Positions 4,163 through 19,413 of a stretch of DNA of 64,000 nt are shown here, piece after piece (positions within the stretch are counted from its first letter, which is position 1; the number at the start of each line of letters is the position of its first letter). A model generated the notes under the pieces. That model was not told the origin of the DNA and did not search any database. It saw only the letters and a program-made list of their open reading frames with translations. Origin of the DNA: a phage; sequence record PX393108.1; one strand, given 5' to 3'. The position numbers and the translations under genes are program-made.

Positions 4163-4525
4163 TTAAAAGAATTTAAATTTTTTCTTTGACCTTTTATTAA
4201 ATGCATCTTGTAGTTGCATTGTAATACATTTTTCTACATGAGGAGCTAACTCAGCTTTTCTTTCTTGGTCAAGAACAGCAAAGTCCATTACGACTTTTCC
4301 ATCAACCCAATCTAATTTTGTCACATACACAATGTGTGTAGAACCGTCTTCTAGTTTAATGACAATCTCCTGGATAACATTTTCCATGGCAGATTTAATT
4401 ATCTTAAGAGATTCATTAAAAAGACGTTCTTTTCTTTCTTCTTCCCCCTCCGAAGAGGGGGATTCATCGATAATTTCTAGATCTAAATCTAAATCATCTT
4501 TATTCATTAAATTCTTCCATATCAC
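4163..4525 (-). CDS. 40: gp40-like head assembly protein
   Basis: 120-aa ORF between 41 and uvsX as in T4. Confidence 0.5.
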   Translation of the reverse strand: MIWKNLMNKDDLDLDLEIIDESPSSEGEEERKERLFNESLKIIKSAMENVIQEIVIKLEDGSTHIVYVTKLDWVDGKVVMDFAVLDQERKAELAPHVEKCITMQLQDAFNKRSKKKFKFF

Positions 4526-5681
4526 TTAACTGATCTAGGTCAGTTTCTAAATCAGCTGCTGATTTACTTTTACTTTCTGGAGATTTAAATTTTTCAACCT
4601 TTGAGTTAATCAATTCATCAACTTCAGCTTCAACAATTTCATTACTATCAATAGCACCTAACTGATAAGCGCGTTTAATAGCATCTCGGAATGGTTGATG
4701 CTTAAATAAAGGACCCCAGAATGTAGTACAGTTGGTATCTTTTGCGCGCCAAGATTTTTCTTCGCGAATCATCTCGCCGGTTTCTTCATCAAGAAATTCA
4801 CGAGCATACCAGCCATTTTTAGGTTTTACTACAAATCCTAATTCAAGAGCCATATCTAACAATCCAGAATAAGGATCGATGCCACCGTCAAATTTAACAT
4901 CAATAAAGAATTTACTTTTTTCTTTAACTGTACGAGATTTTTCTACATTTAGAACAAATTGATACCCCTGAAGATCAGAACCATCTTTAATCTGGCGCTT
5001 ACCGATAATGAATACAGTATCAGCCGAATACATTACGCCTGTACCACCTGTCATCACGGTTTTACTAAACATTTCAATTGTTTCAATTGTATGGTTAACC
5101 GCAACGCACGGAATGTTTTTAATACTAAAATAAGGAGTAACAATACGGAATAATGACTTCAGTGATTTAGCACGAGTCATATCTGCCACAGATTTTTCAT
5201 TCAAGGCATCTTCCGTTTCTTTCTTAGAAGCCATATTACCGATTGAGTCGATGAATACAATAACTTTTTCACCGCGCTCAATAGCTTCAAGCTGATTCAC
5301 CATATCAATTTTCAGTTGTTCAACTGACTGGATTGGTGTATGAATTACACGTTCCGGGTCAACTCCCATGGATCGCAAATAAGCTGGAGTAATACCAAAT
5401 TCGCTATCATAGAATAAACAAACCGCATCAGGATATTTGTTCAAATACGCCGCAACCATAGTCAAAGACATATTTGATTTAAAGTGTTTAGAAGGACCTG
5501 CAAAAATGGTTAAACCAGACTGCATACCACCATCAATCGCGCCGGAAATAGCGATATTGAGCATTGGAATTTTTGTACGGATTACATCCTTTTCATTAAA
5601 GAATTTAGATGTAGTCAGTTCAGCAGTCATTTTAGAAGTGGAAGCTTTAATCAAACGGGATTTTAAATCTGCAATAGACAT
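4500..5681 (-). CDS. uvsX: UvsX recombinase (RecA/Rad51 family)
   Basis: 393 aa; N-terminus MSIADLKSRLIKAS; RecA fold ATPase motifs; T4 gene order. Confidence 0.9.
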   Translation of the reverse strand: MSIADLKSRLIKASTSKMTAELTTSKFFNEKDVIRTKIPMLNIAISGAIDGGMQSGLTIFAGPSKHFKSNMSLTMVAAYLNKYPDAVCLFYDSEFGITPAYLRSMGVDPERVIHTPIQSVEQLKIDMVNQLEAIERGEKVIVFIDSIGNMASKKETEDALNEKSVADMTRAKSLKSLFRIVTPYFSIKNIPCVAVNHTIETIEMFSKTVMTGGTGVMYSADTVFIIGKRQIKDGSDLQGYQFVLNVEKSRTVKEKSKFFIDVKFDGGIDPYSGLLDMALELGFVVKPKNGWYAREFLDEETGEMIREEKSWRAKDTNCTTFWGPLFKHQPFRDAIKRAYQLGAIDSNEIVEAEVDELINSKVEKFKSPESKSKSAADLETDLDQLSDMEEFNE

Positions 5682-5758
5682 TCATTTTTTCCATAGGCAT
5701 CATTATATTTTCCTCACTGGTTAAAGATAGAGTAATTATAACACAATAAATTTAGGCA

Positions 5759-6607
5759 TTAATCAACTGCTATTGGATGAATAGCATTAAACTTATGAAA
5801 CGCTTCTGATTTTTCTTTGCGCGAAACACACATGCGAAGAACCTTTAATGGCTCGTCTTCTTCACCTAATGATTTTCGTTTTTCAATATTAGAAGTTTTC
5901 CAACGAGCTTGCTCTGGAAACTCTCTATTGATTTGCTCAAGAGCTCTATTATGTTTTGAATTACTACGAATTGAACTACATCCGCCTGGAGCTTGTGCTT
6001 TTCCAGATACAACCAGATATTTGAACAAGGCCAAATGCGGATAACCTTGATTAATTAAATTGAGAAATGCATACATATCTTCGCATAAATCAATTTTTCC
6101 ATACCCAATTTGTTCTGTTGTAAGTTTTCCAAGGTCATACCATGTATTCGTGAATCCATATGAATTTTCACGATAATTACCCCAAGATGAAGTAATTTTA
6201 AAAATAGGTAGACGAGCATGACCGTGATAATACCCGCAATCCATGGCATCTTCAACGTATTGAATCAATTCATAGAACTGTTCACGAGTTAACTGATTAA
6301 TTTTATCTACGCAGCGACGATCATCTTTCTTTCGCATTGAACTCATACGAATAGTAGTATCATCGTCAATCATCCAAATTCGTTGACCTGCATACATATC
6401 AGTAATTGCTTTACGAGTACCAGCAATTCCGTTAACATCATCAGGAATAGTTATAATTTTAGCTCTAGACCCGTAAGCGTCATAATAAGCTTTTTCTTCG
6501 TGTTCACGTACTACAATATGAGGTTCATAATCAGATGGAAACATATCAAGGGCAGAAACTGCCCCTACGCGTTGATAGCTTGGAATTACGAATTGAATCA
6601 TTTCCAC
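5759..6607 (-). CDS. Putative GT-A fold glycosyltransferase at the position of T4 beta-glucosyltransferase
   Basis: 282 aa; N-terminal VIPSYQR nucleotide-sugar binding-like motif and WMIDDD (DXD) motif; lies between uvsX and 42; not the T4 beta-gt sequence. Confidence 0.55.
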   Translation of the reverse strand: MEMIQFVIPSYQRVGAVSALDMFPSDYEPHIVVREHEEKAYYDAYGSRAKIITIPDDVNGIAGTRKAITDMYAGQRIWMIDDDTTIRMSSMRKKDDRRCVDKINQLTREQFYELIQYVEDAMDCGYYHGHARLPIFKITSSWGNYRENSYGFTNTWYDLGKLTTEQIGYGKIDLCEDMYAFLNLINQGYPHLALFKYLVVSGKAQAPGGCSSIRSNSKHNRALEQINREFPEQARWKTSNIEKRKSLGEEDEPLKVLRMCVSRKEKSEAFHKFNAIHPIAVD

Positions 6608-7338
6608 TCACCGTTATAATCTTTTTTCGCAATATGGGTTTCGCCAGTTTTCCACCAATGGTCAACCAAATAAAAATGACGGGAATACACATGAAGGCTC
6701 CCGACATTCCATATAATGGAACCTGCTTTATACTGACGAGTTGAATCACCTGCATTCAAATCAGATACTAATTTATCTAGTACGTATTTTTGCCATGCAT
6801 AATCATTACGGAATCCGAAGACCACGTCATTTGAACGCATGTTAACCACTGCATTAATTTTCTTATCACGAATCAGGTACTGTACTGTATTAGTACACAT
6901 GAAATCTGACATGCCATCTTTATTGTAGTCAAATTGCATGGATGGACGAGTATAAATCATGATACCACGTCGAGAATCAGGATTTTGACCAAGTTCAGCT
7001 AAACACATATCATACTGGGCATAGTTATCTTCTGACCAGATGGCCCAACCATAATTCGAGTTAATTTCGCCTTTAGAAGATGCTACCTGCTGCCAAATCT
7101 TTGGTGTTTCACCTGGAATATCTTTAACAAACAGACTTTGAGACTTATACCATTCAAGTTCACGCTGAATGTATTCATCATTAAGAGCGCCAAAAATAAA
7201 AGGTTCATCTGCTACAAATGATGCACCAATAATTTCAATAGTTTTAACACCGGTTTTATCAATTACGAAATCTTTTTCCTTTAATGCAATTCCCAAATGA
7301 AGACGGATTTCTTCAACTGTCATAGAATCATTAATCAT
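6598..7338 (-). CDS. 42: dCMP hydroxymethylase gp42
   Basis: 246 aa, thymidylate synthase-like fold; near-identical to recalled T4 gp42. Confidence 0.9.
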   Translation of the reverse strand: MINDSMTVEEIRLHLGIALKEKDFVIDKTGVKTIEIIGASFVADEPFIFGALNDEYIQRELEWYKSQSLFVKDIPGETPKIWQQVASSKGEINSNYGWAIWSEDNYAQYDMCLAELGQNPDSRRGIMIYTRPSMQFDYNKDGMSDFMCTNTVQYLIRDKKINAVVNMRSNDVVFGFRNDYAWQKYVLDKLVSDLNAGDSTRQYKAGSIIWNVGSLHVYSRHFYLVDHWWKTGETHIAKKDYNGEWK

Positions 7339-7491
7339 TTAAACCTCAATTGATACATTCATATTTAACTTGTAACAGTAATAAACTCCACCCTATAATA
7401 AGCGTTGGAATCATACAAGGAACTGCTACGCTATAGTATATACTTATTATAATCATCAAGATTAAAAGCAATACTGCTAAAATTTTGCTTT

Positions 7492-7743
7492 TCATTCCTT
7501 CTCTCTGATGATAATTACTTGATTTTGCTGTACAGATTTTTTAGTTTCACCCGCAATTGACCAAATAAAGGTAATAAACCAACCAATAATTGACCAGTTA
7601 AACAGTAAAGATGTGAAAAAGATTCCTACTGTCGATTTTGACCCACGCATCAAGGCGATGAACCATGGAAGCATGTATATAATAATAGCCAACATGCCTG
7701 AAACTAAAACCATAAAAATTGAACCTGCTACTAAAGTTTCCAT
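7492..7743 (-). CDS. imm: Immunity to superinfection membrane protein
   Basis: 83 aa, two hydrophobic helices; adjacent to 42 and 43 as in T4. Confidence 0.8.
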   Translation of the reverse strand: METLVAGSIFMVLVSGMLAIIIYMLPWFIALMRGSKSTVGIFFTSLLFNWSIIGWFITFIWSIAGETKKSVQQNQVIIIREKE

Positions 7744-8141: not shown

Positions 8142-8378
8142 TCAAATACAAGTAGTAATTACTCCAGTAGTGCTTACACAGGTATTACCTAATTGAACAC
8201 CCAACGTTCCATTAGTATTCATATGAAGATTATCATCAATTTTTGTTGATACTTTACCATTCATGTGAATAATAGTATTAGATTCAATCACATTCTGAGT
8301 GTCATTTTCAATATCAATAAATGGAACAGCTGCTAATGCAACTAAACACACTGCTAAACAACCATAAACAATTTTCAT
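8142..8378 (-). CDS. Small secreted protein (78 aa); listed ORF trimmed to ATG after early promoter
   Basis: Signal peptide MKIVYGCLAVCLVALAA; RBS GGAGAATAAAATG; the upstream part of ORF 8142..8567 is promoter sequence. Confidence 0.45.
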   Translation of the reverse strand: MKIVYGCLAVCLVALAAVPFIDIENDTQNVIESNTIIHMNGKVSTKIDDNLHMNTNGTLGVQLGNTCVSTTGVITTCI

Positions 8379-8379
8379 T

Positions 8380-8455
8380 TTATTCTCCAAATCCGTATCA
8401 GTTGATAGTTGTATAGTACCATGGAAGAACAGGGATGTAAATAGTTTTGTGAAAA
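8380..8455 (-). repeat. Repeated early promoter-leader module, copy 1 (other copies near 34921-34995 and 50328-50420)
   Basis: 45 nt identical between copies 1 and 2; promoter core near-identical between copies 1 and 3. Confidence 0.6.
8408..8445 (-). promoter_or_regulatory. T4-type early promoter (copy 1 of repeated promoter-leader module)
   Basis: ATTTAC ... TGGTACTATAC on minus strand; leader repeated near 34921 and 50328. Confidence 0.5.
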
Positions 8456-8528
8456 AATTTTTAATGAATTTAAAGGACCTAGAATCATCTATTTTTCCTA
8501 AGTATAGATTTATATTACTTGTATGAAA

Positions 8529-8546
8529 AAGGGACCCGGAGGTCCC
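8529..8546 (-). terminator. Hairpin terminator downstream of gene 43
   Basis: GGGACC-UCCG-GGUCCC stem-loop followed by U-run on minus strand. Confidence 0.5.
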
Positions 8547-8559
8547 TAGATTTATTCTA

Positions 8560-11256
8560 TCAGCCAAACAGGAAGTCTAACGAAGCTTTTTCTTCATAGT
8601 CCATACCCGCCGATTCACACATACCCGCAAGCGGTTTAACAAACGATTTTTGGAACAAAGTTGAGTAGTCAATCCAAGATAGTACATCAGAACGAATTTC
8701 TTTTGGAAGTTCCGTACCCGATGGCCAAGCAATGCACTTGTCACCAAATGGATTTCCCTCACGTAACGGAAGAACCATTACCTTATTTCCATCCAAAATT
8801 GGAGCTACACCTAAACCGCTAACAGCTCGACGATAAGTTAGCACCCCACGAATATGGAACGGGCATTTAAACCCTGGCCAACCTTTATCGTCATATTTCG
8901 CTATATCGTTCGCGGTTTTTACTTCAGCAATAACTTTATAGTCAAGTTGACGGTATTCTTTCTCAAAGTTCTTATAGTATTCTTGGACAGACTCTTCGCC
9001 TTCCTGAAGAATACGACGAATACTTTCTTCGAGAGCTTCTTGTACTGCTTTTGGCGTTGAACTCTGCTGAGTTTCCATACCCATGATTTTTAGATGTGGT
9101 TCAGCAAATCGCTTATCTTCCATATCATAAACGTTCAGAGCATAACGTTTTTTCGCTTTCCAAAATCCACCAACACCCTTTGAACCAAGTGGAGGGCAAG
9201 AAATAGCTTCACGGTCCATATGCATCAGATGCTCGCGGTTATTCATATAATCACATAACTCACGATATGCAACATCAATCATAGGTTCCATCTTTTTCTT
9301 ACCAAACTGATTCATGAATTCAACTAAATCATTTTGTTCTTTAAAGCGGTCAAGACCTACTTTTTCAATTACTTTATCTACACAAACATATACCGAATCA
9401 GTATCACCCGCGGCGATGAAATCTTCACCATCAGTTCCACATACTTTATTCAGATATTCATTAATTTTACGAGCAATCCACTGAATACCAACTTGACCAA
9501 AAATTGTGATAGCAGTAGCATTTCGCAAATCATAGTAACGGAAATGAATATTACCAAGAGCACCATAAAGACTGTTAATAAGAATTTTACGGTTCAGCTG
9601 ATTTGTGTTAGCAAGTGTAGCTGCTTTTTCACATTCTTCGATCAGACTATTAAGAACAGATTCGGTGTAATTCGATAATTCGTTTAAGAAATCATCACTG
9701 AACTTAACATATCGTTCAACTTCTGGTTTAGTTGAACAAGACCCTGCACCTTTCATAATAATCTTTTTAATAGCTTCGGCATTCATTTCTTCAGCGAACA
9801 TTTTCTTTTTCCAATCTTTACGCTGGAAAAATACTTTAGCGATTTCCTTTGGAATGATACCTTCTTGGTGCTTATCATACATCCATCCATTCGGAGAGCA
9901 AGAATATTCATCACTTGGCTTAGGAGCTGTTCCTGCGATATATTCATGAATTGGATGAACTTTAAATTGTCCACGAATAGTCTCAGGACTAATGTTAACC
10001 TGACGAATAATGCTAGGATACAGAGACGTCAAGTCAAAACTCATAATGTATCGACGAGCAATCGGTTTAGGTTCAAATACAAATGCACCTGGAAAACTCT
10101 GTTTAACGTGCGAACCTTGTTGAGGAATAACCTTATGTTCACCTTTCAGTGAGTTAAAAATAATAGCGTCCCAAGTTTTAATAGGACTCATTACACCAGA
10201 AAAAGGCATTTTAGCGTAATAAGACATACTTAAAACTAGATCGATAAACCCACGAATTTTATCAATTGCTTGAACTGATTCTACGTCAATGATGTTATAA
10301 CTAATGTATCGTTGATGATTAGTCTCACGAAGTTTATTAATAGGACCATCGTACGGCAATTTACCTTTTTTGGTTTCGTGCTGAGCAACTGATTCCAAAG
10401 AGAATGATGGCAAATTAGTAAATGCGAATTTCTTGTATAAATCTAAATAATCAAGAATAGATACGCCATCAATAGAATAAATTTCTTTGCTACCGTACAT
10501 ATTTTGAATTAGTTTAGATTTTACTCGACCGATTGGGGAGAAGCGTTTCATACTGCGTTCACCGAGAACCATTTTAACGCGATTCATGATATACGGAACG
10601 TCAAATCCCTCAATATTCCAACCGGTAAAAATAGCAGGTCGTTTCTGTTCCCAGAGATTAATATATTCCATGAGCATATCACGCTCATTATCGAATGGCA
10701 TATAAATTACTCGGTCAAGAATTTCTTGAGGAACTTCATCACCACCTTCACAGTCAAGCTTAGCAGCTAACTTTGCATCCCATTTTGATACTGAACCGTA
10801 CATTGAATTCAACAAATCAAAGACGTAAAAACGGTCGTCAATTGAATCATAATGAGTGATAGCATCAATTTCATATTCTGCTTTCATTGGGTCAGGAAAT
10901 TTATCACCAGTAACCTCAATGTCACAGTTAGCTACACGAACAAATTTTCGGTCATAAACAATTTCTGAACCATATGTATCACTGATATAAGCGAGTTTAA
11001 AATCGTTCATACCGAGAGCTTCGAGACCGATGTCTTCCATTCGTTTCATCCAATCTCGTGCATCTTTCATTGATGGAAATTTTTGAGGAGCGCAATTTTT
11101 ACCGTAAATGTCTTTGTACTTTGACTCTTCCTTACAATGCCTAAACATAGTCGGAAGATATTCTACTTCACGAGTACGTTCCTTTCCGTTTTCATCAATA
11201 TAACGCTCAACAATATTATTTCCGACTGTTTCGATAGAGATATAAAATTCTTTCAT
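8560..11256 (-). CDS. 43: DNA polymerase gp43 (family B)
   Basis: 898 aa; exonuclease and polymerase motifs including YGDTDS; RBS AAGGAAT. Confidence 0.95.
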   Translation of the reverse strand: MKEFYISIETVGNNIVERYIDENGKERTREVEYLPTMFRHCKEESKYKDIYGKNCAPQKFPSMKDARDWMKRMEDIGLEALGMNDFKLAYISDTYGSEIVYDRKFVRVANCDIEVTGDKFPDPMKAEYEIDAITHYDSIDDRFYVFDLLNSMYGSVSKWDAKLAAKLDCEGGDEVPQEILDRVIYMPFDNERDMLMEYINLWEQKRPAIFTGWNIEGFDVPYIMNRVKMVLGERSMKRFSPIGRVKSKLIQNMYGSKEIYSIDGVSILDYLDLYKKFAFTNLPSFSLESVAQHETKKGKLPYDGPINKLRETNHQRYISYNIIDVESVQAIDKIRGFIDLVLSMSYYAKMPFSGVMSPIKTWDAIIFNSLKGEHKVIPQQGSHVKQSFPGAFVFEPKPIARRYIMSFDLTSLYPSIIRQVNISPETIRGQFKVHPIHEYIAGTAPKPSDEYSCSPNGWMYDKHQEGIIPKEIAKVFFQRKDWKKKMFAEEMNAEAIKKIIMKGAGSCSTKPEVERYVKFSDDFLNELSNYTESVLNSLIEECEKAATLANTNQLNRKILINSLYGALGNIHFRYYDLRNATAITIFGQVGIQWIARKINEYLNKVCGTDGEDFIAAGDTDSVYVCVDKVIEKVGLDRFKEQNDLVEFMNQFGKKKMEPMIDVAYRELCDYMNNREHLMHMDREAISCPPLGSKGVGGFWKAKKRYALNVYDMEDKRFAEPHLKIMGMETQQSSTPKAVQEALEESIRRILQEGEESVQEYYKNFEKEYRQLDYKVIAEVKTANDIAKYDDKGWPGFKCPFHIRGVLTYRRAVSGLGVAPILDGNKVMVLPLREGNPFGDKCIAWPSGTELPKEIRSDVLSWIDYSTLFQKSFVKPLAGMCESAGMDYEEKASLDFLFG

Positions 11257-18191: not shown

Positions 18192-18215
18192 GCTAAAGGG
18201 CCGAAGCCCTTTATT
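18192..18215 (-). terminator. C(UUCG)G tetraloop hairpin downstream of a-gt
   Basis: AAAGGGC-UUCG-GCCCUUU on minus-strand transcript. Confidence 0.45.
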
Positions 18216-19413
18216 TTGTAATAATGTCAAACTGCTCTTTAAAGCAGAAGCTTGAATCTTGATGCTGATACAAAAATTCATAAGCTTTTTCACGTTCACG
18301 GTCATAAAGAGCTCGGTCAGATGACAGTTCTTTAATACGTTCAAATGTTGATTCCATGTCATTTTCATCAAACCAAACGATACCGCTATCATGAGAAATT
18401 AACGGAGTATTATCAACACGGAATTTTAAATTTTCGCCAGTAGATTTCCAAAATACTGGAATTGTTCCACATGCACCAAGCTCGAGATGAGTATATTCTA
18501 AAGAACGTTGTAGATATTTTTTATCTAATTTACTCAGCTGATAACCAAATCCGGATTTACTCATGCGTTCAAGCATTTCGCTATTTACATAACGGTCGAG
18601 AATTTGCGTTGGCAAATTAGGAGCAATTTTAATTTGGTCTACTTGATGAAGACGATAATACTCGTATGGAATTCCTTTTTCTTTAATAGGAATGAACGCT
18701 GGAGAACGTTCCAGACCTTCCATAATAGTACTTAGTCCTGCAGGTTTAAGATGTTTTTCGTGAAAATCAAACATCTGATAAAAACCTTTCCATGTAGTCG
18801 TACGACCAATCCAACGGTTGATATTCATGTTAATTTCAGAAACATCTTTCCAGTAGGTTGATCGAACCTTCGCAATATCCATAGGAGGCTGAAAGTTATA
18901 TACGGTCGGTGCTTCTTCAATATCATCAAACAAAGAAACTGTTTCTGGATACCATTCTTTCATCAAAACTTTATTAAAGTCACCATTGTCAGAATGACTA
19001 AAAATAACATCAGCTCGACGAACAGTTTCTTCTAATCCCAAATTTCGGCGCAAAGAAAGAGAAGAATGGTCATGTTGATAAACTACAACACGAACCGAAG
19101 GTTTAATGTTATCAATAATTTTTTTATAGTTATTAATTGTGTCTTCTTCAACTGAAGTAGCAGGAACTGAATTGATAATTAGAATATCACAATCATTTAC
19201 CAGCTTAAGTGTTTTATCGTATTCTTTTGCCAATAAAACCGGAATTGAAAATGACTTATAATCATGTGCGCAATTACGAGTAAATGATTTATCTTTAGCA
19301 TAAACCAAAGTTACTTCATGACCATTTTTAATAAACCAATCACGTTGCTCAAGAGAAAATTTAGTTACACCACAACCTTCAAGACCTCGAGCCATAAAAA
19401 TACATACTTTCAT
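18211..19413 (-). CDS. a-gt: DNA alpha-glucosyltransferase
   Basis: 400 aa; MKVCIFMARGLEGCGVTKFSLEQRDWF very close to recalled T4 AGT. Confidence 0.9.
   Translation of the reverse strand: MKVCIFMARGLEGCGVTKFSLEQRDWFIKNGHEVTLVYAKDKSFTRNCAHDYKSFSIPVLLAKEYDKTLKLVNDCDILIINSVPATSVEEDTINNYKKIIDNIKPSVRVVVYQHDHSSLSLRRNLGLEETVRRADVIFSHSDNGDFNKVLMKEWYPETVSLFDDIEEAPTVYNFQPPMDIAKVRSTYWKDVSEINMNINRWIGRTTTWKGFYQMFDFHEKHLKPAGLSTIMEGLERSPAFIPIKEKGIPYEYYRLHQVDQIKIAPNLPTQILDRYVNSEMLERMSKSGFGYQLSKLDKKYLQRSLEYTHLELGACGTIPVFWKSTGENLKFRVDNTPLISHDSGIVWFDENDMESTFERIKELSSDRALYDREREKAYEFLYQHQDSSFCFKEQFDIITK

Follow-up and report, generated by a model that had tools for sequence, protein, structure and literature searches.

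The 64,000-nt stretch of phage DNA analysed here (sequence record PX393108.1, referred to below as the window) carries an unbroken open reading frame (ORF) on the minus strand at 5759..6607, which comprises 282 codons when counted from a GTG. The ORF is flanked downstream by uvsX (4500..5681, minus strand; PHROG 97, E=1e-109) and upstream by gene 42 (6598..7338, minus strand). A preliminary description of the sequence had placed it where T4 encodes the 351-aa beta-glucosyltransferase (b-gt), and the T4 interval between uvsX and gene 42 does indeed hold segA and the 351-aa b-gt. The protein length of 282 aa given in the same description fits the ORF counted from the GTG but not the probable protein. 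The third codon of this mechanically defined ORF is an ATG at 6601, which overlaps the stop codon of gene 42 in an ATGA arrangement, is preceded at a distance of 5 nt by the Shine-Dalgarno-like sequence GGTGAG, and yields a product of 280 aa, i.e., the annotated length of the T2 coding sequence and the length reported for the T2 enzyme (PMC6024577). On these three points (the overlap with gene 42, the position of the Shine-Dalgarno-like sequence and the length in T2 and the literature), the GTG at 6607 was rejected as the start, and the ATG at 6601, two codons further in, is most likely the true one. On this evidence, the gene, hereafter ba-gt, probably spans 5759..6601 (280 codons and a stop) and is probably translationally coupled to gene 42 through the overlap.

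In the window, as in T2 and T6, a 77-nt spacer (5682-5758) is all that separates uvsX from the glucosyltransferase gene, and the segA homing endonuclease gene that T4 carries there is absent. A scan of positions 5600-7600 for promoters and terminators returned counts at the level of shuffled sequence. The one terminator-like hairpin, at 6547-6567 on the minus strand, falls within codons 12-18 of ba-gt; it consists of a G+C-rich stem-loop (GGGGCAG TTT CTGCCC) ahead of a T-rich stretch, and T2 and T6 have the identical sequence. With one such site found in the scan against 0.8 expected, the frequency is that of chance, and no function is claimed for it as a separate regulatory element. Two further features were observed elsewhere in the window. 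Between the DNA polymerase gene (gene 43) and imm.1, an ORF at 8142-8567 (minus strand) contains an internal ATG from which a protein of 83 aa would start, its N-terminus being hydrophobic (MKIVYGCLAVCLVALAAVPF...); T2 has an annotated coding sequence of the same length that matches it, and the corresponding T4 gap has no annotated gene. The segment 52485-53505 (minus strand) holds 11 tRNA genes (Arg, His, Asn, Tyr, Met-CAT, Thr, Ser, Pro, Gly, Leu and Gln), more than the eight of T4.

In a large protein database, the E-values of homologues of the ba-gt product range between about 1e-189 and 1e-70, which places the ORF far above chance. Comparison with the T2/T6 beta-alpha-glucosyltransferase, proposed in the preliminary description as a check, gave a direct answer: the protein aligns without gaps to the T2 beta-glucosyl-HMC-alpha-glucosyltransferase and is identical to it at 275 of 280 positions (UniProt Q06717, cited in PMC6024577; coding sequences in PV648364 and AP018813), and is 98% identical to the enzyme in both T2 records and in a T6 record. 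Family searches agree with this assignment. PHROG 842, annotated as beta-glucosyl-HMC-alpha-glucosyltransferase, matches with E=3.5e-89 over profile positions 3-269 of 270, and Pfam PF20691 ("TET-associated glycosyltransferase", TAGT) matches over profile positions 2-205 of 205 with 38.7 bits against a gathering score of 27.5 bits. No NCBIfam model matches the protein, and a sequence search of the PDB returned a single chance match (E=0.77), so that sequence comparison reveals no relative of solved structure. The locus between gene 42 and uvsX is common to the window, T2 and T6, and the 4-nt ATGA overlap is also found in T2.

The absence of a relationship to the T4 enzyme, as described earlier, was confirmed. 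In a BLASTP comparison, the window protein and T4 b-gt share only chance fragments, the best having E=3.3 over 8 residues, and homology to b-gt was rejected on this result. The two enzymes share their position in the genome and, as far as the activity of the window enzyme can be judged from its T2/T6 counterparts, a chemistry linked to hmC-DNA, the use of UDP-glucose and a beta linkage. They differ in that T4 b-gt has a GT-B fold and acts on bare hmC, whereas ba-gt acts on alpha-glucosyl-hmC (PMC13216743, PMC6024577). RB69-type phages, which encode arabinosyltransferases, lack alpha-gt, unlike the window phage, and a BlastP search with T2 ba-gt found no homologue in RB69 (PMC6024577).

Conserved residues were examined in a family alignment of the window protein and ten homologues from a large protein database (31-99% identical), which also served as input for structure prediction. 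All 32 invariant columns of this alignment are kept in the window protein. The VIPSYQR and WMIDDD motifs reported earlier are both present in the ORF. The IPSYQR segment (codons 6-11; 6569..6586, minus strand), in which I6, P7, S8, Y9 and R11 do not vary among 11 homologues as distant as 31% identity, contributes to strand E3-7 of the predicted model and would form the first beta-strand and following loop of a GT-A nucleotide-binding half, with an inferred role in nucleotide binding. The three aspartates of the DXD motif (D79, D80 and D81; codons 79-81, 6359..6367, minus strand) are likewise invariant and directly follow strand E74-78 of the model, the canonical position of the GT-A DXD; they probably hold the divalent metal and the diphosphate of the UDP-sugar. 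The E-D pair at codons 174-175 (6077..6082, minus strand), which opens helix H174-184 of the model, is a candidate for the "xED" motif of inverting GT-A enzymes; D175 is invariant and E174 nearly so, and by general knowledge of GT-A enzymes the pair would plausibly supply the catalytic base.

The AlphaFold model of the protein has a mean pLDDT of 77 and a pTM of 0.80; residues 131-148 and 202-210 are modelled with low confidence. In a Foldseek search of the PDB, the top matches were GT-A enzymes, namely the WrtF fucosyltransferase, RmlT, the K4 chondroitin polymerase (K4CP), TarP and TarS, with E-values of 1e-5 to about 1e-4, a probability of 1.00 and moderate TM scores of about 0.45-0.50; structurally related sugar-nucleotidyltransferases were also returned. 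These five cellular enzymes of the GT2 family share with the model the Rossmann-like nucleotide-binding half and a DXD after strand 4, but they are only 11-14% identical in sequence, with TM scores of about 0.4-0.5, and they act on teichoic acid or polysaccharide rather than on DNA. The model thus predicts a GT-A (GT2-like) fold with a DXD motif, and the earlier assignment to the GT-A type, made from the motifs, is upheld by the PF20691 match, the model and the Foldseek result. This agrees with the published AlphaFold3 model of T6 TAGT, which has a GT-A fold and groups next to GT2 enzymes; the T4 alpha-GT and beta-GT are both GT-B (PMC13216743).

The other genes needed for such a modification are present as well, and the T4-like dCMP hydroxymethylase and alpha-glucosyltransferase noted earlier were both recovered. 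Gene 42, whose product is the dCMP hydroxymethylase that provides the hmC precursor, is 97% identical to T4 gp42 at the protein level (237/245; PHROG 160). The alpha-glucosyltransferase gene (a-gt; 18211..19413, minus strand; PHROG 2888, E=3.8e-222), which would make the alpha-glucosyl-hmC that serves as the acceptor for ba-gt, encodes a protein identical to T4 a-gt (NP_049673) at 364 of 400 positions (91%). Identity of a-gt to T4 is listed as 91% for T2 and the RB phages and 99% for T6 (PMC6024577 Table 1), which places the glucosylation genes of the window with the T2/RB type.

Any two of the T2, T6 and window ba-gt enzymes are about 98% identical. Five substitutions separate the window protein from that of T2, namely R11 (H in T2), S23 (T), K92 (R), I101 (V) and P251 (S). 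At S23, K92 and I101, which all fall in variable columns, the window differs from both T2 and T6. At codon 11 (6569-6571 in the window), both T2 records encode His, and Arg is the family-invariant residue, kept in the window and in the T6 record AP018814. The difference between His11 and Arg11 might be related to the reported gap in gentiobiosyl-hmC content between T2 (5%) and T6 (72%). It is quite improbable that the substitutions, chiefly the retention of Arg11, make the window enzyme a high-activity variant with position 11 as the determinant of that gap.

T6 ba-gt, for which deletion genetics (PMC11078745) and a GT-A model (PMC13216743) are available, occupies the same locus as the window gene. 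Both public T6 records bear a lesion in ba-gt, and the window has neither. In MH550421 (4951-4953 region), codon 10 is a TAG and the annotated coding sequence restarts at Met20, which would delete the conserved first strand. In AP018814 (7135-7974), one Asp of the invariant DDD is lost, leaving 279 aa. These lesions may be stock-specific mutations or sequencing errors, since T6 is reported to carry 72% gentiobiosyl-hmC. T6 also differs from the window in its alpha-gt, as given above (PMC6024577).

The chemistry of the T2/T6 enzymes is described in the literature. Their product is gentiobiosyl-hmC (PMC6024577), and deletion of ba-gt from T6 abolishes this product and, according to the authors, leaves only alpha-glucosylated hmC (PMC11078745). 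Wild-type T6 DNA, which contains gentiobiosyl-hmC, withstands the Brig1 glycosylase in vitro, while the deletion increases the sensitivity of the phage to Brig1, and Brig1 treatment leads to degradation of the mutant DNA (PMC11078745). In environmental Tequatrovirus phages that carry alpha-GT and a TAGT gene syntenic with T4 beta-GT, HPLC/MS revealed 5-hmdC and its alpha-glucosyl- and alpha-gentiobiosyl-methyl-dC derivatives, and the beta-glucosyl form was undetected (PMC13390438). The ratio of hmC to alpha-glucosyl to alpha-gentiobiosyl forms was about 1:2:2 in phages EL, BGP and Geo (PMC13390438).

Altogether, near-identity to the T2/T6 enzymes, PHROG and Pfam membership, synteny, partner genes, fold and the literature lead us to regard the gene at 5759..6601 as the orthologue of the T2/T6 beta-glucosyl-HMC-alpha-glucosyltransferase (ba-gt; Pfam TAGT) that adds a second glucose, with a probability of about 0.94. 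By analogy with the near-identical T2/T6 enzymes (PMC6024577, PMC11078745), the window enzyme would transfer glucose in a beta-1,6 linkage. The corresponding pathway would begin with gp42, which would make hm-dCMP, and the phage polymerase would then build hmC into DNA. Alpha-gt would add glucose from UDP-glucose to hmC in an alpha linkage, and the 280-aa GT-A enzyme, its gene presumably co-transcribed with gene 42 and probably coupled to it in translation, would transfer the glucose of a second UDP-glucose, with inversion, to the 6-OH of the first. The expected product is beta-1,6-glucosyl-alpha-glucosyl (gentiobiosyl)-hmC, a disaccharide that would alter which host defences act on the DNA, for instance by conferring resistance to Brig1 in vitro.

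The share of hmC that would carry the second sugar in this phage is a separate matter, as T2 and T6, with near-identical enzymes, reportedly have very different extents of gentiobiosyl-hmC (PMC6024577, PMC11078745) and sequence identity thus does not predict the extent of di-glucosylation. One could therefore suppose that the orthologue has little effect, as reported for T2 with its roughly 5% gentiobiose, and that the DNA is essentially mono-alpha-glucosylated. Together with the 5% and 72% extents of enzymes that are about 98% identical (PMC6024577, PMC11078745), the 91% identity of the window alpha-gt to that of T4, the value of T2 and the RB phages and not the 99% of T6 (PMC6024577 Table 1), speaks for such an outcome. 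We consider it unlikely, given that the window protein keeps the invariant Arg11 where both T2 records have His11, and that EL, BGP and Geo, which likewise combine alpha-GT and TAGT, contain substantial gentiobiosyl-hmC (about 1:2:2; PMC13390438).

Other readings concern the reaction itself. The preliminary description had offered two options for the second glycosylation step, a T2/T6-type second-sugar transferase or a new sugar specificity. The former is what the 98% identity to T2 and T6 indicates, and the latter finds no support, because of that same identity, the retention of the 32 invariant columns and the location of S23, K92 and I101 in variable columns. A TAGT member may accompany either alpha-GT or beta-GT or be present alone, and the family may hold more than one kind of enzyme according to the authors (PMC13216743), which leaves some room for a changed donor or acceptor specificity, i.e., a non-glucose sugar or attachment to alpha-glucosyl-hmC through some linkage besides beta-1,6. 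With the sequence evidence just given against it, such a change is very improbable, and less likely still than a high-activity variant based on Arg11. It could also be argued that the enzyme takes over the function of T4 beta-gt by adding glucose in a beta linkage straight to bare hmC, as the gene occupies the T4 b-gt locus and about 25% of the hmC of T2/T6 is reported to be unglucosylated, so that a free acceptor exists. This, too, is very improbable: beta-glucosyl-hmC is reported to be absent from T2/T6 DNA (PMC11078745), HPLC/MS did not detect the beta form in Tequatrovirus phages with alpha-GT and TAGT (PMC13390438), and the protein has no sequence similarity to b-gt, from which it also differs by a GT-A as opposed to a GT-B fold (PMC13216743).

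The gene is widespread among related phages. A tblastn search found ba-gt in 690 of 50,697 phage records. In 472 of these the identity is at least 95%, and nearly all of the 472 come from T4-like phages of Escherichia, Shigella, Yersinia or Salmonella. A DNA comparison gives 475 records that match the full length of the gene at 90% or more. Many Tequatrovirus genomes share the gene order of the surrounding 5 kb and are 97-98% identical to it. A second tblastn group, at 60-80% identity, includes CC31 and phages of Klebsiella, Cronobacter, Salmonella and Citrobacter. The TAGT homologues of CC31 and of T4-like phages of Klebsiella, Salmonella, Citrobacter and Serratia belong to the same Pfam family, align over their full length, keep the invariant motifs and adjoin gene 42, all as in the window, but are only 47-65% identical to the window protein. 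In CC31, STML-198, Moon and PS2, the ba-gt-type gene is paired with a beta-gt homologue and not with alpha-gt (PMC6024577), so the acceptor may differ in these phages.

The preliminary description had implied that the arrangement in the window is unusual, which is contradicted by these numbers. Besides the 472 records at 95% or more, a-gt and ba-gt occur together in 12/14 T4-like RB phages (PMC6024577), alpha-GT with TAGT is reported as the common pairing, and the T4 pairing of alpha-GT with beta-GT is found in 6/753 genomes (PMC13216743). In Tequatrovirus, alpha-GT with TAGT is thus the normal arrangement, from which T4 departs, and most T4-like coliphages have ba-gt at this locus. All of this, from the gene and its product to the fold class and the distribution, is already known from published work, so the window adds nothing new on the biology, and the result matters only as correct annotation. 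The annotation predicts alpha-glucosyl-hmC and gentiobiosyl-hmC in the DNA of the window phage, in contrast to the mix of alpha- and beta-glucosyl-hmC found in T4. The predicted modification would bear on sensitivity to modification-dependent defences: GmrSD-type enzymes are reported to target gentiobiosyl-hmC DNA too (PMC13216743), and Brig1 is a defence that such DNA resists in vitro (PMC11078745).
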